Positions 34,391-43,893 of a stretch of 43,893 nucleotides of DNA are shown in pieces. Each line of letters starts with the position of its first letter. Position 1 is the first letter of the stretch. A program made the position numbers and the translations under genes. The stretch is from a bacterium (lineage in GTDB: Bacteria; JAMOTN01). The DNA lies in assembly GCA_027062325.1 (NCBI GenBank), contig JAMOTN010000029.1:1-43893 (forward strand). The letters are read 5' to 3'. Under the pieces are notes generated by a model. That model did not search any database, had not been told where the DNA came from, and was given only the letters and a program-made list of their open reading frames with translations.

Positions 34391-34414
34391 TTATTCAATA
34401 AGGAGGTGGTCAAT

Positions 34415-34618
34415 ATGATCATGCTAAAATTGCGCTGCCCTTATAACCCTACTATCAAGTGTCCATGGTATAATCGAAGTTTTGGTAAATGTGAAAGCTG
34501 TCCTGTGAAGAAAGGGAGCAAAAACTCTACAATTGGAAAACTCATCGATACACTAATTGAGATAATATTCAAAGATCCTCAAGTAATATTTAGAGATCCA
34601 CCTTTTCCTTTCATTTAA
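34415..34618 (+). CDS. Small four-cysteine protein (67 aa)
   Basis: AAGGAGGT RBS before ATG at 34415; C-x7-C-x9-C-x2-C. Confidence 0.7.
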   Translation: MIMLKLRCPYNPTIKCPWYNRSFGKCESCPVKKGSKNSTIGKLIDTLIEIIFKDPQVIFRDPPFPFI

Positions 34619-34638: not shown

Positions 34639-34959
34639 ATGAAAATATCCCTTTATGAATTTATAGAGAAGTTATTCAACTCAGAATTCAAACTCACTGT
34701 CGTATTCAAAGGTGAAAACGAAGAAAACACCTATTACGCTTTCGTTCACAACAGAAAAAATATACTCATACCCGTTACCAAACTTCCAAAATTATTTGTC
34801 GAAGCTTTCGAATATTTCTTAGAATTTAGAGGACTTGAAGAACCACCAAATCCAATTTTAGACCTAGCCGATTACTTTCAATTCGTAGTAGAAGAATTCA
34901 AAATAAAAAATGTCCCAATTTACGCAGAGATGCAGCTCATCTATCCCGACAAAACGTAA
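34639..34959 (+). CDS. Hypothetical protein (106 aa)
   Basis: GGGGGTGG RBS; co-oriented with the Cys-rich ORF. Confidence 0.65.
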   Translation: MKISLYEFIEKLFNSEFKLTVVFKGENEENTYYAFVHNRKNILIPVTKLPKLFVEAFEYFLEFRGLEEPPNPILDLADYFQFVVEEFKIKNVPIYAEMQLIYPDKT

Positions 34960-36175
34960 GAACAATCTCGTACTTATCATTGCTACTAACATAGTTCAAG
35001 AGGTGAACCACTAATTCTGTCTTATATTTTACCATTAAAGCACTATTTACCCCGTGCAACTCTTTCCACAAACCAGCAACAAACCATCCACCTAAGTATA
35101 CTGCACCATCAACTCCAAGCATCAAATGAACAGTTTGCACTCTATTATTTCCTAAAATGCCTTTTATTAATTCACTCAATTCGTTAAAATACTTTGGAAA
35201 ATTTTTCAGGCAGCTTTCATGTAAAGCATCGCCACTTTCAAACCTGTAAATTTTCACATTTTCCTCTGGAAAACCATCTGGTGGGACATAAGCATTCATA
35301 CCTACCTTCTTATCACCATCTCCCCCAAAATAAACCCCAACAGGCTTTTTTTGTACTATACTAGGGTTAACACTCTTTCTCTCTTTTGACCTTAAAAGAA
35401 TAAACAACTCGTTCCTTTCAAACTTAACTAAAAATTTACCTATCCACTCCAACAAAAAATTCAATTTGACCCCTTTTCTCACTGTCCATTCATAAGTTTT
35501 TGTAAAATAAGTTAAAAGCGAAATGAATCTTCTTTCTTCTATTTTTCTACATTCAGGCAACTTTTTTAACAACTCAGCTTTCTTCTCATCGTGAGCTCTC
35601 TTCAAATACCCATCCTTTAAAACCCCTGTAAAGGCAAACTCTTCTAAATCTTCTCTTACTTCCAAACCTAAATTCTCAAAAATCGCAGAAACAAATCCTA
35701 TCAAAAATGCCAAATTCCATGACATACCTGTCAGTATCTTATGCAAACCAATATCAGTCAATTCAAATCCTAAAATCAACTCCATTTCTAACTCTTCAAA
35801 ATAATTGCTTTTTAAAACATCTATCCAAACCCTCTTATATCCCTTTTCCCTAAATAAAACTTTCTCCAATTCATCTCTTAACTTTTCCAGACCTCCCTCA
35901 AGCTCTTTTAACCATGAAAGTTTCTCTTTTCCTACATTAATTTTTTCTAAAATTCGCCCCAACTCTTTCTTATTGGCAACATTAAAAACCCATATCTTGT
36001 AAATATCCAACTCTTCATCCACAATTACTGGAAAATTCACCTTAGTAATACAGTTAGTCTCTAAAAAATCTATAAAATCTGCCCTCTCAGCTTTAAGTTT
36101 CCACAAACCGCCATTTTTAATCTTACCAGTAGTAAAATCACATTTCCATTCAAGGAAAATTAATCCACGTTCCAT
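34937..36175 (-). CDS. Lon-type protease domain plus SAVED/CARF-like lobe (CalpL-like)
   Basis: TGMS152WNLA...FAFTGVLKDG...EKK199AE Ser-Lys dyad pattern; C-terminal VHLMLGV...LNYVSSNDKYEIVL resembles a SAVED C-lobe; CRISPR context. Confidence 0.65.
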   Translation of the reverse strand: MERGLIFLEWKCDFTTGKIKNGGLWKLKAERADFIDFLETNCITKVNFPVIVDEELDIYKIWVFNVANKKELGRILEKINVGKEKLSWLKELEGGLEKLRDELEKVLFREKGYKRVWIDVLKSNYFEELEMELILGFELTDIGLHKILTGMSWNLAFLIGFVSAIFENLGLEVREDLEEFAFTGVLKDGYLKRAHDEKKAELLKKLPECRKIEERRFISLLTYFTKTYEWTVRKGVKLNFLLEWIGKFLVKFERNELFILLRSKERKSVNPSIVQKKPVGVYFGGDGDKKVGMNAYVPPDGFPEENVKIYRFESGDALHESCLKNFPKYFNELSELIKGILGNNRVQTVHLMLGVDGAVYLGGWFVAGLWKELHGVNSALMVKYKTELVVHLLNYVSSNDKYEIVLTFCRDR

Positions 36176-36194
36176 CTCTATACCTCATAAATCC

Positions 36195-37226
36195 CTATAC
36201 TTCTTCAATATCAATCACAACTTCCCCTGCCTTCATAAGAGCAAACATAACTTTTAGTTCTTCTCCTTTTTGGGCATCTCCTTTATTATCTAAAATCAAT
36301 GGTAACATATCAATCTCAAACTCTAATTCATCTCTTTGATTATTCCTCTTGTTAATAAAAACCAACTTATATTTTCTTCCTCTCTCAAGTTTTTCCATAA
36401 CTTCGTCTAATATATCAATAAACAAACTAACCTTTTCTTTATACTCAACTAATTTAACCATCACCTTTTCAAATTTTTTAACTTTTTCTGGTCCTTCTGC
36501 AGCAGCCGCTAACACTATCCGTTCCTGTGGAGGACATAAGTAACTCTTTAAAACTTCATAAACTTTATTTAATACAATAACTTGAGCAGATTTACCCGAT
36601 AAAACAACCTGCTCTTTTTTTTTAACATCTGCAATTTCTAATAATTCGTCGAAATACACCAATTTCCAATTTATTTCAGCTAAGATTGATCTAACTTCTA
36701 ACCGAAAGTCTCCTTTTTTAAGGTACGGTATGCCCCGAGACAGAATAAAATGTTTTAGATCTACTGATAAAATTAAATTTGAAGCTTCTCCAACTCCTGT
36801 TAATTTTTTTATTACTTCCGCCACCTCTTCAGGAACATAAGAAACTAAATAGCAAATTTTCCTTATCGAATTCAAACTTAACGTGCAGACAGCATCTGTA
36901 AATACTGCCCACACTCCTCCTTTCATATCTCTTACCACCCAATCCTGCATATCCGCAAGAATGTGATATTTACTCACAAGCACCACATCTGCCATTTCTC
37001 CATCTTCATCTAATATCAAAATCCCAAAATCCTCAGCCCCCTCGAATACATATAAATCTCCTTCCGAAAAAATTACTGGATAATTTTTCTTCTCCTTCTC
37101 ATTTAACACTTCTAAATATTTTCCTTCAAACATTTCTTTCAAACTTCGTGCTTTTTCTAATATTTCCTCCTCATTATATTTTCCTAATATTTCCTCAACC
37201 TTTCTCTTTAATGCTTCCAACTTCAT
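36195..37226 (-). CDS. Putative anti-sigma factor/protease target (CalpT-like)
   Basis: EGDLYVF...VVLVSKYHILADMQDWVV...YLVSYVPEE resembles a MazF/PemK-like fold; LAAAAE linker; between sigma and protease genes. Confidence 0.55.
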   Translation of the reverse strand: MKLEALKRKVEEILGKYNEEEILEKARSLKEMFEGKYLEVLNEKEKKNYPVIFSEGDLYVFEGAEDFGILILDEDGEMADVVLVSKYHILADMQDWVVRDMKGGVWAVFTDAVCTLSLNSIRKICYLVSYVPEEVAEVIKKLTGVGEASNLILSVDLKHFILSRGIPYLKKGDFRLEVRSILAEINWKLVYFDELLEIADVKKKEQVVLSGKSAQVIVLNKVYEVLKSYLCPPQERIVLAAAAEGPEKVKKFEKVMVKLVEYKEKVSLFIDILDEVMEKLERGRKYKLVFINKRNNQRDELEFEIDMLPLILDNKGDAQKGEELKVMFALMKAGEVVIDIEEV

Positions 37227-37278
37227 CGCTGACCCCTCCCTGCTTAGTAGTTTGTCTTAAAGCTTCTCCATTTTGTAG

Positions 37279-37305
37279 GACCTATGTAACTACCTTCTTG
37301 TGACA
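37279..37305 (-). promoter_or_regulatory. Candidate ECF-type promoter 2: TGTCACA-N16-GGTC
   Basis: Overlaps the sigma gene stop and points at the CalpT-like gene about 50 nt downstream. Confidence 0.55.
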
Positions 37306-38136
37306 AAACAATTTTTTAATTTTTTCCCAGCACAACTTCGCACTTTCAAACTCCAACTTATCTAACTCTTCTTTGGCAATTTCTTGCATCTCCTCACTAC
37401 ACAAATACAAAGCAATTAAACATTCCTCGACTACTTCAGATAATTCTTCTTCTGCTAAGAAAAACTCTTTCCATTCTTCTTCAACAGTTTTCCAAAACTC
37501 CTTTAACTTTTTCTCAGCTCTTGACTTCTGCTTTCTAGCAACCGCAGGCATAGAAAATTTATAAATTTCTCTGCACTCATCAACAACACTGTGAATACCT
37601 CTCACAATATTTTTTAACATCGTCCAAAACATTCCTACCAATTCAGCAGGAGTAAAATTTAGGAACTTTTTCATCTCTTCAATAAATGCTTCATAGTAAT
37701 CAAGCTGAGGAATAGAAAACTTCTTATTCAAATTCTCTAATTTCTCAATATCCAACTTTTCATTATCATCCAAACTATCAATCTGTAGCTGATACTTTTT
37801 CTTCTCTTCTTCCAAATAGCTTGACCAACTATGAATAACAGTGGTTTTGAAATAATTATAATATTTACCCCACTCTCCAGATTTCGGATCAAATGCCAAG
37901 GTTTTATTTTTCATTGCTTTCTCAATTTTATGCAAGTACTTATCAATAAAATCCTCTATTATTAAGAATGGCAAATCTGGAAATTTTTTTCTGATAATTT
38001 TAACCATAATTTTTTCAACACTATTTTGCAACTCTGCTACTGCCTTCAGACTAACACCAGCATTTTCATCATGCAAAATCCTAAAATAATAGTAGAGTAC
38101 ATGAGCCGGAGTTTCCTTCCTATTCACTGTAATCAC
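37282..38136 (-). CDS. Divergent sigma70/ECF-like factor (CalpS-like)
   Basis: Region 2-like FDPKSG..YYNYFKTTVIHSWSSYLEEEKK..IDSLDD; region 4-like end VARKQKSRAEKKLKEF. Confidence 0.65.
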   Translation of the reverse strand: MITVNRKETPAHVLYYYFRILHDENAGVSLKAVAELQNSVEKIMVKIIRKKFPDLPFLIIEDFIDKYLHKIEKAMKNKTLAFDPKSGEWGKYYNYFKTTVIHSWSSYLEEEKKKYQLQIDSLDDNEKLDIEKLENLNKKFSIPQLDYYEAFIEEMKKFLNFTPAELVGMFWTMLKNIVRGIHSVVDECREIYKFSMPAVARKQKSRAEKKLKEFWKTVEEEWKEFFLAEEELSEVVEECLIALYLCSEEMQEIAKEELDKLEFESAKLCWEKIKKLFCHKKVVT

Positions 38137-38155: not shown

Positions 38156-38827
38156 TTATTCAACAGCTAAAACTCTCTCAATAAACTTCAAAGCTTCCCT
38201 TCTCCCTCCAAACATTTTTATCAAATCAACTCCATGTTTTCTCGCGCATTCTCTAAATACGCTTTCACTTTTTCTAATATAATTCCAATATCTACTATTC
38301 AAGTAAATTTTCCTCACCCTTTTCTTTTTAGGATTAATTCCTATGTAACTAGCATTTTCCATCAAATACTCCCTACATTCTCCCTCAATACTAACCATAT
38401 CCCATTTAACAGATAAAAGATCAATTTTCAAATTTTTTACTCCTAGAAATTTAGGATAACTTGTAAGAAACAGTAATCGCTCTCCTTTTAAAAACCTCCA
38501 CCTTAAAACTGGTCGCCTGTCTTTATTCCCTAACCATCTCTCTACAACCTCTCTCAACTCTTGAGGCAAATTTTTATCAAACCTCCAGAAAATCTTATTT
38601 TTCAAATACCCAAACGTCACTGTTGAATTTTTCTCAACAATTCTAATAATCTCATCATCTGACATCTTTTTCTTAAACTTAAACTTTCTCCTATTCCTAA
38701 ATTTAACATTCCTTTTATTCTTACTTCTCTTAGTAGTTTCTCCATCCTCACTATCGCCACTTGAGCTAAAAATAAAATAACCAGCCGCCATTAACATCCC
38801 CAAAATTACTCCACCTAAACCGTTCAT
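38156..38827 (-). CDS. Hypothetical basic membrane-anchored protein
   Basis: N-terminal TM, Lys/Arg-rich; GGGGGA RBS; 19 nt upstream of the sigma gene. Confidence 0.65.
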   Translation of the reverse strand: MNGLGGVILGMLMAAGYFIFSSSGDSEDGETTKRSKNKRNVKFRNRRKFKFKKKMSDDEIIRIVEKNSTVTFGYLKNKIFWRFDKNLPQELREVVERWLGNKDRRPVLRWRFLKGERLLFLTSYPKFLGVKNLKIDLLSVKWDMVSIEGECREYLMENASYIGINPKKKRVRKIYLNSRYWNYIRKSESVFRECARKHGVDLIKMFGGRREALKFIERVLAVE

Positions 38828-39037: not shown

Positions 39038-39361
39038 CTACGCAATAATACCAGAAAACTTATTCTTAAAGTAATTCTCAACTTTCCTTAAATTTGCCTT
39101 AACTTTATTCAACACTTTGTCTTCAACAGATGTTATAAACAAATTGTCATCCTCATCCAATATTTTCTCAAGCTCTTTTAACACCTTATCAAGTTGCCTC
39201 TTTGACAAGTAACATGCAAACACACTGAACTGAACATCAACACCATACCTTCTAAGTAACTCCAAAATTTTTCTATCCTTTTTAGAATACCTAGTCCTAT
39301 CTTTCGCTCTAATATCATAAGATATGATGTAAATCTTTTTAGAAACCGTCATACATATCAC
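39038..39361 (-). CDS. cas2: CRISPR-associated Cas2 (second copy)
   Basis: YIISYDI...LRRYGVDVQFSVF...DDNLFI. Confidence 0.9.
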   Translation of the reverse strand: MICMTVSKKIYIISYDIRAKDRTRYSKKDRKILELLRRYGVDVQFSVFACYLSKRQLDKVLKELEKILDEDDNLFITSVEDKVLNKVKANLRKVENYFKNKFSGIIA

Positions 39362-39423: not shown

Positions 39424-40845
39424 TCACTTTAACACTTCAAGCACATCCTTGTACAAACGCTTCAACTCATTACTCCTATAGTAAAAACCTGCTAAATTAA
39501 GCAAAACGTTCCCAGGAACAACGTAACTAACAAACCAATTAATAAAACTTTTGATCTGACCATTTAAAATTATCCTATAAGAAAACACCTCATCATCTAT
39601 CCAGTTCACTAATTCCTGAGCAAACGAAGAGAAAGTTTTGCTCCCCAACTCTTCCGCCAAGAAAAAGTTTGCTTCCCACAAACTTGAATCACCCTCACTC
39701 CACGAAGGAACATCTAAAAATCTAAATGCCACCATTAAAGCCAAATACTCCAACAAATCATCTCTAAACTCTGTATCCTTTAGCATCTGCTCTATAAATC
39801 CCACAACCAAGATTAGCAATGAAAAGTAAGCAAATCCAAACATATCAAATGCATTAACGTGGAAAAACCAAAGTTCTTTTTTACTCATATCATCGTAATG
39901 ACTCTGTCTAACAACACGTTTAATTTCGTTAACAAATCCTCTTAAAAATCTGTTAATTCCATAAGCCGAAAAAGTACCATTTCCAAGTGTATCCAGCTCC
40001 CCCAAAAACCATTCCAACTCATGTCTAACTTTCAACTCCCACTTAAATAACCCTATCAAATCAGAGCTCTTGTTTAGAGAATGCCTAAAAACTTTATTGT
40101 AACCTCCCCAACTGAACACCTCATCGGAAAACGCAGTATAACACCTACCAATCAACTTTTTATATTCATACTTATATTCATCAAGTATCCTCAACATCTG
40201 CTCTTCAGCAGGAGATAAATTGTGCTTCCCCCTTAAGAACTCGTAAAACGGCTTTCTGTAGTTCGCCCACCACTGCTTACGTATTCTCTCTTTCTCCTTA
40301 GCCCTGCCTCTCTTATCCAAAACCTTTTTCAACTCTCCATAGCTCATTTCATTCCACGTAACTTTAGCAACAATACTCTTTACCCGCCTCAAAAAAGTAT
40401 CAACTTTTTTTCTCATAGGTGTTACTGCCTCAGTCAAACTTCTGAACAAATCCGCTATATTTGGAGTTTTTAATCTATCAAGCATAAACATGTAATTTAA
40501 GCAATCAAAATTCACACAGTAGTTGTAAAACTCCCTCGCCAAATCAACGTTCTGCTTCAAAAAAGCATTTTTTAACTCTTCACGTTCTCTGCTGCTCACC
40601 CTCCTACTAATAGGAGTTACACGCTTAAATAATCCCAAGCAATTTCCAGCAAATTCCCACCTAGCATCAACTTCCCAAAAAACATCATCCGTCAGCCTAA
40701 ATTTATACTTTCCATCATCTCTTTTAACCAATAAACGTTCTATTTGCGGCACTACAATTTTGACAGTTCGAGGTTTAGTTCTTTTCTTACGATTTATAAG
40801 AACTCCAGCAACTTTTCCTAGAAACTCCAATATTCCCATTCTCAT
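39424..40845 (-). CDS. Highly diverged, probably inactive Cas1 paralogue
   Basis: Collinear by-eye matches to Cas1: IVVPQIERLLV, DLAREF..NYMFML, FLRGFVNE (cf. LRGYEG), VNAFDMFGFAY (cf. LNLFFNYAY), DDLLE (cf. SDIME), YRIILNGQI; His loop absent; flanked by two cas2 genes. Confidence 0.55.
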   Translation of the reverse strand: MRMGILEFLGKVAGVLINRKKRTKPRTVKIVVPQIERLLVKRDDGKYKFRLTDDVFWEVDARWEFAGNCLGLFKRVTPISRRVSSREREELKNAFLKQNVDLAREFYNYCVNFDCLNYMFMLDRLKTPNIADLFRSLTEAVTPMRKKVDTFLRRVKSIVAKVTWNEMSYGELKKVLDKRGRAKEKERIRKQWWANYRKPFYEFLRGKHNLSPAEEQMLRILDEYKYEYKKLIGRCYTAFSDEVFSWGGYNKVFRHSLNKSSDLIGLFKWELKVRHELEWFLGELDTLGNGTFSAYGINRFLRGFVNEIKRVVRQSHYDDMSKKELWFFHVNAFDMFGFAYFSLLILVVGFIEQMLKDTEFRDDLLEYLALMVAFRFLDVPSWSEGDSSLWEANFFLAEELGSKTFSSFAQELVNWIDDEVFSYRIILNGQIKSFINWFVSYVVPGNVLLNLAGFYYRSNELKRLYKDVLEVLK

Positions 40846-40889: not shown

Positions 40890-41153
40890 TTAAACTATCA
40901 TCCATCTAAAAAATTTTCTATTTCCCAAATAAATTCGCCCCTTGCAATCATTATCAGTTTGGGGAATAAAAAGCAACCTATCCCCTTTATTCAAAAGCTG
41001 AGAACAATCCCAATACAAATCATTCACTTTCTTAAAAGGGATTTCTATTTCAAAAATACTGTATTGAATCCTACAACCGTATTTTAAGAGCAAAGCAGAA
41101 ATTTTCCTCCTAATTTTATCATCTGAAATATCAAAAGCCACTAACCACTTCAT
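40890..41153 (-). CDS. cas2: CRISPR-associated Cas2 (first copy)
   Basis: WLVAFDISDDKIRRKI...YGCRIQYSIFE...GDRL. Confidence 0.93.
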   Translation of the reverse strand: MKWLVAFDISDDKIRRKISALLLKYGCRIQYSIFEIEIPFKKVNDLYWDCSQLLNKGDRLLFIPQTDNDCKGRIYLGNRKFFRWMIV

Positions 41154-41187: not shown

Positions 41188-42795
41188 TTAACCATTAACT
41201 TTTCTCTCTCCAAACTTTCTCAATGCTTTTTCAAAGGAGCTTATATCCTCCTTCAAAAATCTCTCCACAATTCTCAATAATCTAAACTCAAACCATTCAG
41301 AAACTACTCGCACCACCAATGAAAAATCCAGATCAAATCTTTCCTTATTCAACAACGCCCTAAGAATTCTTTCAAATTCATCTTCCTCTCTATTCTTCTG
41401 GCCATCCTCTTCGCCATCCTCGGCAGCAACATCTTTAATTACCTGCAATCTCCTAAGCTCTTCCAACAAACTTACCCATATATTATATCTCAAACTTTCC
41501 AACAAACTCTCCAACTTCTCATCCTTGCCATAAAGTGCCGTGTTCAATTCTTTATATTTACTCCTAAAAGGATGCTTTACCTCTTCTGTCCATTCCAAAT
41601 AAAGCTTTAAAATTGAACTCAATACATCAGAATCTCCCAAATCCCCATCTTCCTCACAAGCCTCATTGATAGCAATATCATTTTTAGAACAAGATTCACT
41701 ATTAGAGTTACAATTGCGTCTTTCATTTTTTTCATTATTGCCTACATTTTTACCAGCATCCGTAAATCCTTTCAAAAATCTTTCTAAGTCACCCCTTTTA
41801 TCATCCAAAAACCTATTAAAAACAACGGTATCAAAAACCACATGTTTTATGAGTAGCACACGCACTCTTTCCATAATATCCGACGCTAAAGCATAGTGTC
41901 TCCCCCTCTTTATGTGCATCACACCGAGTGAGGGATTGAAATTTTTTATCAAGAGTATGCAAGTTGTAAGGTTGTATATGAGAGTATATGCATAATTAAA
42001 GAATAGATTTAAGAAATCATTTGACTTCCTGTCACGCCTTTTAAACGCCGGATCCAAACCAAAAGTTCCTAACACATTCTTCATCAAATCAAACATGAAT
42101 ACACTAGCTCTTCCTTCATAACCCCTTAGAGTATTAATCTGCGAATCCAAGACATTTACATAAGTTTCCAGATTCCTAGCTATCCTCTTTTTATAGCTGC
42201 CTAACTCTTTCAAAAAATCATGCAGTCGCTTTTTGGTATTTTTCAACCAATTTAACAATCTAAGTCCATTATATTCACTATCAGCCTCCCCATTCTCATC
42301 AGTCCAGTTTCCATGTTCCGTCTTCACTTTCAAAAACAGTAGTTCTGTTAGCTCAAAAAGACTTACCATTTCCTGAATTTTGTCACGCACTATCTTAATA
42401 ATAAAATTTAATCTCCAGGGTGAGTTAGTCAATAACATTTGAAGTTCTCGTAATTTGTAAGCACTAAAGTAAGAAGACGGTAAAATAACCGACTTTATAC
42501 TCAAATTTCTTCCTACAATTATTACTTTTTTCTCATAGTTCGCTAATAATCCTAAAGCTTGCGTTGTTAATTGAACATTCTGTGAAACTATAAGGTAATC
42601 AATTGCAGCTATTGGAATTTGAATTTTTTCAGGATAAGAACGAGCATCACTAACTCCGCCAATATCAATTTTTTTGCTAATTCCTCCTGTAGAAACAGTA
42701 AGATTAGTAGAAGTTAGTGATGTAAGAACAGAAAAAGGCCGAAACAATAAACTTCCCTTCTCTACTCTCAACTTACCGGGTTTAAGGATTATCAT
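41188..42795 (-). CDS. cas1: CRISPR-associated Cas1, enlarged (535 aa)
   Basis: IPIAAIDYLIV, LTTQALGLL, LRGYEG (E), NYAY, LGVMH (H), LASDIME (D/E). Confidence 0.92.
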   Translation of the reverse strand: MIILKPGKLRVEKGSLLFRPFSVLTSLTSTNLTVSTGGISKKIDIGGVSDARSYPEKIQIPIAAIDYLIVSQNVQLTTQALGLLANYEKKVIIVGRNLSIKSVILPSSYFSAYKLRELQMLLTNSPWRLNFIIKIVRDKIQEMVSLFELTELLFLKVKTEHGNWTDENGEADSEYNGLRLLNWLKNTKKRLHDFLKELGSYKKRIARNLETYVNVLDSQINTLRGYEGRASVFMFDLMKNVLGTFGLDPAFKRRDRKSNDFLNLFFNYAYTLIYNLTTCILLIKNFNPSLGVMHIKRGRHYALASDIMERVRVLLIKHVVFDTVVFNRFLDDKRGDLERFLKGFTDAGKNVGNNEKNERRNCNSNSESCSKNDIAINEACEEDGDLGDSDVLSSILKLYLEWTEEVKHPFRSKYKELNTALYGKDEKLESLLESLRYNIWVSLLEELRRLQVIKDVAAEDGEEDGQKNREEDEFERILRALLNKERFDLDFSLVVRVVSEWFEFRLLRIVERFLKEDISSFEKALRKFGERKVNG

Positions 42796-43223: not shown

Positions 43224-43893
43224 GTTTCATTGCCGAACACTTACTAACGGATTACGACATATATCGCCCTCGTAGAGGGCTACGGAAATTCTCACAGTTT
43301 CATTGCCGAACACTTACTAACGGATTACGACCGAGTTCCCCTCGCTTCGGGTGTCCCCCCTTTGGGTTTCATTGCCGAACACTTACTAACGGATTACGAC
43401 AAACTAAACACTCTAGGTTTTACGGCAAAAGCATTTGTGTTTCATTGCCGAACACTTACTAACGGATTACGACGGGCTCGGGCGGGGTCCCGGGGCTTTT
43501 GCCCCCGCGCGGTTTCATTGCCGAACACTTACTAACGGATTACGACCCCCGACGCCCCAGTTGGGGGTGTTGGGGGCTCGTCGGTTTCATTGCCGAACAC
43601 TTACTAACGGATTACGACCGGTTTCCTTTTTTATGTTCCCTTTTGCAGCTGTGAGAGCCCGGGCCCCGCACCCGAGCTCCCATACGACCGGTTTCCTTTT
43701 TTATGTTCCCTTTTGCAGTTTCTGTTTCATTGCCGAACACTTACTAACGGATTACGACGAGTCTTCGACTCCCTTATTTATTTATAATGAAAAGTTTCAT
43801 TGCCGAACACTTACTAACGGATTACGACGTGAGGTCGCGGCCGCGGTCCTCAGGCCTAAGCCTGAGTTTCATTGCCGAACACTTACTAACGGA
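43224..43893 (+). CRISPR. CRISPR array, 35-nt repeat GTTTCATTGCCGAACACTTACTAACGGATTACGAC, 8 full repeats plus 1 cut by the window edge; type III-like
   Basis: Identical repeats at 43224, 43297, 43366, 43439, 43512, 43584, 43724, 43794, 43866; spacers of 38, 34, 38, 38, 37, 105, 35, 37 nt; 3' end ATTACGAC resembles type III 8-nt handles. Confidence 0.98.

Follow-up and report, generated by a model that had tools for sequence, protein, structure and literature searches.

The contig JAMOTN010000029.1 of the bacterial assembly GCA_027062325.1 (GTDB lineage Bacteria; JAMOTN01) was analysed over its entire length of 43,893 nucleotides, which is called the window here (contig C29 in our numbering), and carries three consecutive minus-strand open reading frames (ORFs), ORF284, ORF343 and ORF412, that probably form a very remote calpS-calpT-calpL module, a switch that turns a type III CRISPR signal into transcription. 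The assembly comprises 81 contigs (1.65 Mb, 84% complete), and the genome is the sole representative of its order and phylum in the genome collection searched. A preliminary description, drawn from the letters of the contig, had read the three genes as a sigma factor, a MazF-fold-like anti-sigma factor and a Lon-type Ser-Lys protease with a SAVED-like C-terminus, in the manner of a CalpS-CalpT-CalpL cascade. In the ORF listing the three co-oriented frames lie exactly at the limits given there, and as whole proteins none of them matches a Pfam, NCBIfam, PADLOC or PHROG family. The intergenic gaps are 55 bp between ORF284 and ORF343 and 19 bp between ORF343 and ORF412. The genes and the features read in them are as follows.

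37282..38136, minus strand: ORF284, CalpS-like, candidate sigma factor of the extracytoplasmic function (ECF)-like kind (284 amino acids, 34.0 kDa, GTG start)
36195..37226, minus strand: ORF343, CalpT homologue, presumed anti-sigma factor and protease substrate (343 amino acids, 39.4 kDa)
36777..37076, minus strand: predicted MazF-like N-terminal domain of ORF343, residues ~51-150 (family-guided model)
36495..36512, minus strand: LAAAAE, ORF343 residues 239-244, candidate cleavage site
36198..36494, minus strand: predicted CalpT10-like C-terminal domain of ORF343, residues 245-343 (family-guided model)
34937..36175, minus strand: ORF412, CalpL-like protease candidate (412 amino acids, 47.9 kDa)
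35531..36175, minus strand: N-terminal and Lon-like part of ORF412, residues 1-215 (hhalign)
35720-35722, minus strand: S152 of ORF412 (MAFFT --add alignment)
35624-35632, minus strand: F182-T183-G184 of ORF412 (MAFFT --add alignment)
34940..35560, minus strand: candidate C-terminal sensor of ORF412, residues 206-412, reduced and SAVED/CARF-like (hhalign)

The reference system is that of Sulfurihydrogenibium sp. YO3AOP1 (PDB entries 7QDA, 8B0R and 8B0U), whose CalpL joins a Lon-type protease without ATPase to a nucleotide sensor at its C-terminus; the candidate ORF412 is likened to it, and the three-gene make-up read here (sigma factor, MazF-like anti-sigma factor ending in a small docking domain, protease) resembles that of the whole system. 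For comparison, Calp loci were gathered from other genomes. A search with SAVED (PF18145) gave matches in 18 of 401 sampled genomes, and two of the SAVED proteins are CalpL relatives, with phmmer E-values of 1.5e-42 and 4.5e-30 to the chains 7qda_A and 8b0r_A over nearly their full length. A locus search seeded with one CalpL returned only 1 weak locus, and a five-protein CalpL profile detected CalpL in 79 of 178 genomes of one phylum. Profiles for CalpL, CalpT and CalpS were built from 42 genuine loci, 34 of clade A and 8 of clade B. The 34 clade A loci are distinct and were kept with flanks of only 1.5 kb each; a co-oriented gene for 240-320 amino acids lies directly upstream of calpL in 27 of them, and in 23 of those 27 this CalpT-sized gene is itself preceded by a gene for 150-260 amino acids. 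The CalpT-sized and CalpS-sized upstream genes each form a coherent family, and loci without one or the other may be cut-off cases because the flanks are so short. In clade B, whose CalpL-like proteins have ~565 amino acids, CalpT is present at 8 of 8 loci and CalpS at 7 of 8, in the order S-T-L. The order sigma factor, anti-sigma factor, protease is the same in the window as in the fetched loci, those of the CalpL relatives at E 1.5e-42 to 7qda_A included, and differs from the order L-T-S of Candidatus Cloacimonas acidaminovorans (PDB 9EYI group; order as given in the partially available source). A collinear-block statistic was discarded for lack of power: even ORF343 with CalpT, tried as the positive control, came no higher than z 1.1.

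ORF343 can be regarded, from profile searches, as a statistically secure remote homologue of CalpT. When the 1453 ORFs of the genome were searched unfiltered, a 27-sequence CalpT hidden Markov model (HMM) ranked it first (E 4.2e-8, 29.4 bits; residues 24-142 against HMM positions 17-120), the next ORF standing at E 0.22. A 35-sequence CalpT HMM likewise placed it first (E 3.1e-7), and hhalign gave P 1.1e-4. Its identity to the CalpTs is 14-21%. Among the 401 sampled genomes, a CalpT profile that included ORF343 matched 5, namely this genome and exactly the 4 that have CalpL. With 343 amino acids the protein is longer than its CalpT relatives (248-312).

A model of ORF343 made by AlphaFold2 (AF2) with the CalpT alignment (mean predicted local distance difference test score, pLDDT, 71.6) contains confident domains at residues 51-145 and 250-343, with pLDDT values of 83-92 and 80-90, respectively, and a poorly predicted linker. 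In this family-guided model the N-terminal domain is MazF-like, which agrees with the earlier reading of a MazF-fold-like anti-sigma factor, and the C-terminal domain is CalpT10-like. The top Foldseek matches of the N-terminal domain are all MazF (5ckf_A, template modelling score by target 0.69, E 0.015), and VIA-align superposes 94 of its residues on 7bye_B (Z 9.2, root-mean-square deviation 2.9), and 8 more chains, of MazF or CcdB, score Z 8 or above. The MazF, Kid and CcdB toxins thus share the fold of residues 51-150 (Z 8-9.2), but ORF343 differs from them in having a long linker and a CalpT10-like C-terminal domain and in being homologous specifically to CalpT; in Calp systems, unlike in toxin-antitoxin pairs, the MazF-like domain holds a sigma factor. 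The best match of the C-terminal domain is 8b0u_C, the CalpT10 fragment in the CalpL/T10 complex of Sulfurihydrogenibium (Z 5.5, root-mean-square deviation 2.9, 75 of 76 residues aligned).

VIA-align pairs model residues 242-343 with residues 195-269 of 8b0u_C, a chain that begins at residue 195; because model residue 242 pairs with chain residue 195, the first ordered residue of the CalpT10 fragment aligns inside the LAAAAE segment. This segment had been put forward as a candidate cleavage linker at 36495-36512, and both its coordinates and its place in the family fit: in a MAFFT --add alignment it falls on the Ala-rich column of the family, the A242 column holding Ala in 27 of 35 CalpTs and the A243 column 19 Ala, 8 Gly and 5 Ser. 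An Ala-rich motif some 75-100 residues ahead of the C-terminus is expected of a CalpT, and LAAAAE occupies residues 239-244 of 343. The string AAAA is present in 18 of the 1009 genome ORFs of at least 200 amino acids. A cut at LAAAAE would yield computed fragments of ~27.5 and 12 kDa, and such an Ala-rich, LAAA-type site resembles that of Candidatus Cloacimonas acidaminovorans, whose CCaCalpT is described in the available part of its report as cut in LAAA between A204 and A205 into a 24.3-kDa MazF fragment and a 10.9-kDa C-fragment (bioRxiv 10.1101/2024.05.08.593097). Unlike CCaCalpT, ORF343 has no match to DUF2080 (PF09853), nor does any other protein of this genome; the same search over 301 genomes gave 1 irrelevant match.

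ORF284 lies directly upstream of the CalpT homologue, as calpS does in the fetched loci, and is longer (284 amino acids) than the CalpS proteins compared (164-266). Aligned with 23 CalpS sequences, hhalign gave P 0.0026 for its residues 150-237 against columns 138-216, a score reached by 0 of 138 null ORFs (the null ORFs and null segments of all hhalign tests were taken from this genome). Tested apart, its N-terminal part gave P 0.06 and its C-terminal part P 0.0029. In the features of the Atlas language model its nearest named clusters, all at a score of 0.94, are Sigma70_r2 (16% of members), Sigma70_r4 (76%) and HTH_IclR (70%). Among ~430 neighbour ORFs compared by single-sequence phmmer, most of its best matches are CalpS, and the best match of ORF412 is a CalpL.

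A complex of the two proteins was modelled from ORF343 residues 1-238 with their own alignment and ORF284 folded without one. The pair scored 0.65 (runs 0.54, 0.67 and 0.65), and the highest of 3 controls 0.20. The mark passed is one that 116 of 157 solved complexes, and 2 of 215 pairs of mismatched proteins, also reach, counts that apply only roughly here because an alignment built for this analysis was supplied; the runs shared at least 27% of their contacts, with a partner pLDDT of at least 55. The predicted interface joins ORF343 residues 47-57, 101-102, 126-135 and 156-160, in the MazF-like domain, with ORF284 residues 8-64. This model supports a predicted binding of ORF284 by the N-terminal part of ORF343, in agreement with the Candidatus Cloacimonas acidaminovorans system, where, according to the part of the source that is available, CalpS is bound only by the CalpT N-fragment (bioRxiv 10.1101/2024.05.08.593097).

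ORF412 follows the CalpT homologue after 19 bp, where the fetched loci have their calpL. Its similarity to CalpL is weak, sub-threshold but collinear. Against the N-terminal and Lon columns of the 42 CalpLs, hhalign gave P 0.0057 for residues 1-215 (score reached by 0 of 150 null segments), and against their SAVED columns P 0.0068 for the sensor part (1 of 150), the latter match being confined to residues 326-408 and the last part of SAVED. Clade B is the profile closest to ORF412 (HMM rank 3 of 1453, E 0.42, not significant; hhalign P 0.004, residues 144-192), and its proteins share the S-T-L order and a SAVED domain that is also weak (Pfam E 0.0044). In a MAFFT alignment S152, W153 and L155 fall on columns that hold Ser in 42/42, Phe or Tyr in 42/42 and Leu in 42/42 CalpLs; the columns of F182, T183 and G184 hold Phe in 41, Thr in 38 and Gly in 42; and the FPV motif of ORF412 likewise sits in an invariant or near-invariant CalpL column. 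As in Sulfurihydrogenibium, S152 thus stands in the catalytic Ser column, and it is a fair candidate, from the alignment, for the nucleophile; S163 would be the second choice. In the literature the dyads are given as S152-K193 for SsCalpL and S154-K195 for CCaCalpL (bioRxiv 10.1101/2024.05.08.593097).

For the sensor, the two best Atlas matches of ORF412 are SAVED clusters of 468 and 529 amino acids (score 0.82), and in the Atlas model residues 275-411 resemble Rossmann-like/CARF domains (Csa3_N, template modelling score by row 0.40, below the tool's bar). The Pfam SAVED model PF18145 has no match in ORF412.

Searches of large collections returned no relatives. Each of the three proteins retrieved itself only from 5.8 billion proteins; ORF412 against 1.84 billion representatives gave itself and one spurious match, with no true relative, and by tblastn it had no match in plasmids and phages. 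The spurious match, P0003, was rejected as a relative because it is a beta-propeller repeat protein found through its repeats.

Several results weigh against the Calp reading. Searched as domain pieces, with Pfam E-values up to 10, the three proteins showed no Lon, SAVED, sigma-70, PemK/MazF or DUF2080 domain, a negative that says little, since at locus L036, whose Calp genes are genuine, neither CalpS nor CalpT nor the Lon part of CalpL has a relevant Pfam match. By phmmer against the PDB sequences none of the three matched a CalpL, CalpT or CalpS chain, so that no pairwise similarity to the Sulfurihydrogenibium chains is detectable. The C-terminal part of ORF343 alone was not significant by sequence (hhalign P 0.21), and its assigned fold was modelled with the CalpT alignment as a guide. 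HMMER profiles of CalpL rank ORF412 36th (E 3.2) and 147th (E 13) of 1453, those of CalpS rank ORF284 43rd (E 6) and 1206th of 1453, and the hhalign probabilities of both are 1-11%. With a wider alignment of 30 CalpS sequences the P of ORF284 falls to 0.028, with a nearly full-length, collinear match, and the Fisher combination of ORF412's two collinear matches, ~4e-4, comes from tests whose split points were chosen after the first alignments had been viewed. The column that is Lys in 42/42 CalpLs holds C209 in ORF412, with K211 two residues further on, so the Ser-Lys dyad of ORF412 is unconfirmed and its Lys not securely placed, unlike in SsCalpL; in the register of hhalign it is K198 or K199 that would come close to that column, and the N-terminal and Lon part carries insertions of ~36 and ~10 residues. 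The sensor part has ~207 residues against ~285 in CalpL, about 80 short and with internal stretches unmatched, and the whole protein has 412 amino acids against 472-548 in the 34 clade A relatives. The Atlas rule rates the SAVED lead as probably wrong, only 3 of the 10 best family-bearing matches having a family in common. The AF2 single-sequence model of ORF412 is unusable (pLDDT 32.5), and no independent fold was obtained for the protease or the sigma candidate (Atlas models at pLDDT 0.56-0.59). Finally, the genome's cas10 genes are on contigs other than that of the trio, in an assembly of 84% completeness.

Set against these points, the cascade proposed in the preliminary description is supported as a whole by the CalpT homology of ORF343, the gene order, the CRISPR context and Cas10 proteins with GGDD in the genome, together with a Crn2-type protein. 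The comparison with CalpL, CalpT and CalpS by profile and structure that had been suggested there came out significant for CalpT, with a CalpT10 fold match in the family-guided model, and sub-threshold for CalpL and CalpS. Its parts fared unevenly. The sigma factor gained from the collinear CalpS similarity and the complex model, although HMMER gives ORF284 no significant score; the Lon-type protease kept its Ser, in an invariant column, with an insecure Lys partner; and of the SAVED-like C-terminus the last part found a weak match, the rest being either missing or unmatched. A system of this kind is already known; this copy is unusually remote, its sensor is possibly reduced, and its position beside adaptation genes is unusual.

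The three genes close a tightly packed minus-strand row that leads away from a CRISPR array in the order cas1, cas2, ORF473, cas2, ORF223, ORF284, ORF343, ORF412, so that, as had been noted before, the module sits with adaptation genes on the same strand directly upstream. Its neighbours are listed below.

38156..38827, minus strand: ORF223, basic protein with hydrophobic N-terminus, same operon (no family)
39038-39361, minus strand: cas2 (Pfam Cas2; NCBIfam and PADLOC agree)
39424-40845, minus strand: ORF473, basic protein (no family)
40890-41153, minus strand: cas2 (Pfam Cas2; NCBIfam and PADLOC agree)
41188-42795, minus strand: cas1 (Pfam Cas1 E 1.7e-28; NCBIfam and PADLOC agree)
43224..43893, plus strand: CRISPR array, 35-nucleotide repeat in 8-9 copies, running off the contig end (repeat search)

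The stop of ORF223 lies 19 bp ahead of ORF284, and the two cas2 genes match Pfam at E 2.6e-15 and 1.4e-16. The array is the only array-like region across the 81 contigs. None of the 39 window ORFs scanned against Pfam (9 of them also with PADLOC) matches a cas10, csm, cmr or cas6 family, as the preliminary description had stated, and the remainder of the window holds housekeeping genes. The module adjoins cas1, cas2 and an array with its type III association at the level of the genome and not of the locus.

A cas10 with an intact GGDD motif, which the preliminary description had proposed to seek elsewhere in the genome, was found twice: contig C49 encodes a 1161-amino-acid Cas10 with HD and with GGDD at residue 863, and contig C25 a 754-amino-acid Cas10 with GGDD at residue 526, beside Csm3 and Csm4. 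A cas6 model gave only an 18.8-bit partial match, inside the Csm4-like gene. Since the cas10 genes sit on other contigs of an incomplete assembly, the functional link between Cas10 and the trio is an inferred one. Adjoining the csm genes on C25 is a gene for a stand-alone 141-amino-acid STIV_B116-like protein, a candidate ring nuclease of the Crn2 family (Pfam E 2.6e-13).

C25:30211-30636 (genome G000; L014:12212-12637), minus strand: STIV_B116-like protein (Pfam)

The Crn2/AcrIII-1 family is described as cA4-cleaving in the part of PMC12409355 that is available, and the presence of a Crn2-type protein beside csm genes favours cA4 as the messenger.

A ring-nuclease domain also occurs in the compared loci. 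The CalpL-like proteins of clade B (L070-L077, e.g. L071:4342-6054) continue past their weak SAVED into a C-terminal domain that is STIV_B116-like (E 5.7e-21), of the Crn2/AcrIII-1 ring nuclease kind, and are thus Lon-SAVED-ring-nuclease fusions with a CalpT of their own; the only fusion named in the available part of PMC12409355 is Csx1-Crn2. ORF412 differs from these ~565-residue proteins in being without that domain, which in this genome is the separate gene on C25.

Further observations were made on other contigs of the genome. Contig C76 (L012, 11264-16593) ends in a degenerate copy of the window's CRISPR repeat, beside which lie genes for a 510-amino-acid protein with a weak match to Csx1/Csm6 with CARF and HEPN domains (PADLOC E 1.6e-5) and an 803-amino-acid protein of no family. 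On C25, at 36078-37892 (L014:18079-19893, minus strand), a 604-amino-acid GGEEF protein weakly matches the Cas10 palm model (E 4.3e-6); it was rejected as a Cas10, as it looks like a diguanylate-cyclase-type protein instead. An 845-amino-acid HD-domain protein adjoins it.

By analogy with the studied Calp systems, the following mechanism is proposed. Type III complexes encoded elsewhere in the genome would recognise foreign RNA, and their Cas10 cyclase would make a cyclic oligoadenylate, most likely cA4. The signal would bind the shortened CARF/SAVED-like C-terminal part of ORF412 and activate its ATPase-less Lon-type part, with S152 as the most likely nucleophile. ORF412 would then cut ORF343 in or beside LAAAAE, giving a MazF-like N-fragment of ~27.5 kDa and a protease-docking C-fragment of ~12 kDa. 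As the N-fragment is predicted to hold ORF284, cleavage followed by further degradation of this fragment would free ORF284 to redirect RNA polymerase. We infer from the analogy that ORF412 would be an active protease, with the ligand and cut site named here, and ORF284 a working sigma factor.

Two other readings of the trio deserve weight. In the first, which we consider unlikely, the genes descend from calpS-calpT-calpL but have decayed or been rewired, protease activity or cyclic oligoadenylate sensing having been lost, and are now a relic or serve another input. In its favour are C209 in the invariant Lys column, the ~80 SAVED residues without a counterpart, the absent Pfam SAVED match, a divergence of the three proteins that far exceeds that of the 42 compared loci, and the lack of a homologue among 5.8 billion or 1.84 billion proteins. 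However, none of the three frames is broken, and they stand close together in the same row as cas1 and cas2; ORF412 keeps the invariant Ser, aromatic, Leu and F-T-G positions and has K192, K198, K199 and K211 near the expected place, in a region where the alignment contains an insertion; ORF343 keeps its Ala-rich site; and the predicted sigma/anti-sigma interface passes its controls.

In the second, which we hold to be quite improbable, only ORF343 is related to Calp, and ORF412 and ORF284 are unrelated genes, for instance of a MazF-fold toxin-antitoxin-like or other defence module that has no protease and sigma factor logic. The lack of a significant HMMER score for ORF412 with the CalpL profiles and for ORF284 with the CalpS profiles, and the want of a fold for either protein, would agree with this, but in the sampled genomes CalpT-like genes occur only where CalpL is also present, and the fetched loci have calpT immediately ahead of calpL. 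The hhalign matches of both proteins (P 0.003-0.007) also fall in the expected collinear places and are rarely equalled by null ORFs, their best phmmer matches among the neighbour ORFs are CalpL and mostly CalpS, respectively, and the ORF284/ORF343 complex model passes. That the three are chance open frames in AT-rich DNA and not genes would suit their lack of database homologues, but is scarcely credible for frames of 284-412 codons on one strand, tightly packed within a cas operon, of which ORF343 is significantly homologous to CalpT and has confident domains in a family-guided model.

If the trio is a Calp module, as we think probable, it is possible, if doubtful, that ORF412 is a minimal CalpL with a single reduced CARF-like lobe as its sensor in place of a two-lobed SAVED. 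Such a single-lobe sensor would have to be activated in another way, perhaps through dimerisation around the ligand or through recognition of a different nucleotide. Given the place of the module in the cas1-cas2 operon, next to the array, the sigma factor might likewise govern spacer acquisition or the expression of the array, and not a general stress response. A shortened sensor, if still working, could mark the minimum for control by cyclic oligoadenylate.

CalpL-T-S is one of few routes that turn a CRISPR alarm into a transcriptional response, and CalpL was found in 17 of 1113 type III loci in one survey, according to the part of it that is available (PMC11229360). Since the present copy is invisible to Pfam, NCBIfam, PADLOC, PHROGs and billion-protein searches, such modules are probably undercounted in surveys that use standard profiles. 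The positions that survive this extreme divergence (the Ser-aromatic-x-Leu motif, the F-T-G motif, the Ala-rich cut site and the MazF-like core) are useful for the definition of the family and for protease engineering.

Some of the compared Calp loci hold a fourth gene. At 6 loci a conserved, Cys-rich protein of 150-176 amino acids with a KKRPF motif is encoded directly upstream of calpS, and the members of this family score E 1e-38 to 6e-80 against their joint HMM.

L036:5442-5894, L072:2941-3456, L073:7102-7626, L074:2739-3239, L075:7966-8496 and L076:290-796: fourth gene

It has no counterpart in the window, the best matches in the genome standing at E 0.75 or worse, and by the joint HMM it is unrelated to ORF223, the gene ahead of ORF284.

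ORF223 and ORF473 match no family in Pfam, NCBIfam or PADLOC. The two cas2 genes resemble each other at E ~1e-5, with ORF473 between them, and Cas1 has 535 amino acids, including a long acidic C-terminal extension. In the array, 4 of the 7 inter-repeat intervals (43259-43793) have a G+C content of 51-84%, against 38% for the genome, and in 3 of these 4 the value is 68-84%; the 105-nucleotide interval at 43619-43723, which is without a proper repeat, holds a 36-nucleotide exact duplication. A scan for promoters and terminators gave a result no better than chance. At the other end of the gene row, a convergent ORF for 106 amino acids, of no family (34639-34959, plus strand), overlaps the final 23 bases of ORF412, and a Cys-rich ORF for 70 amino acids lies just ahead of it at 34406-34618.

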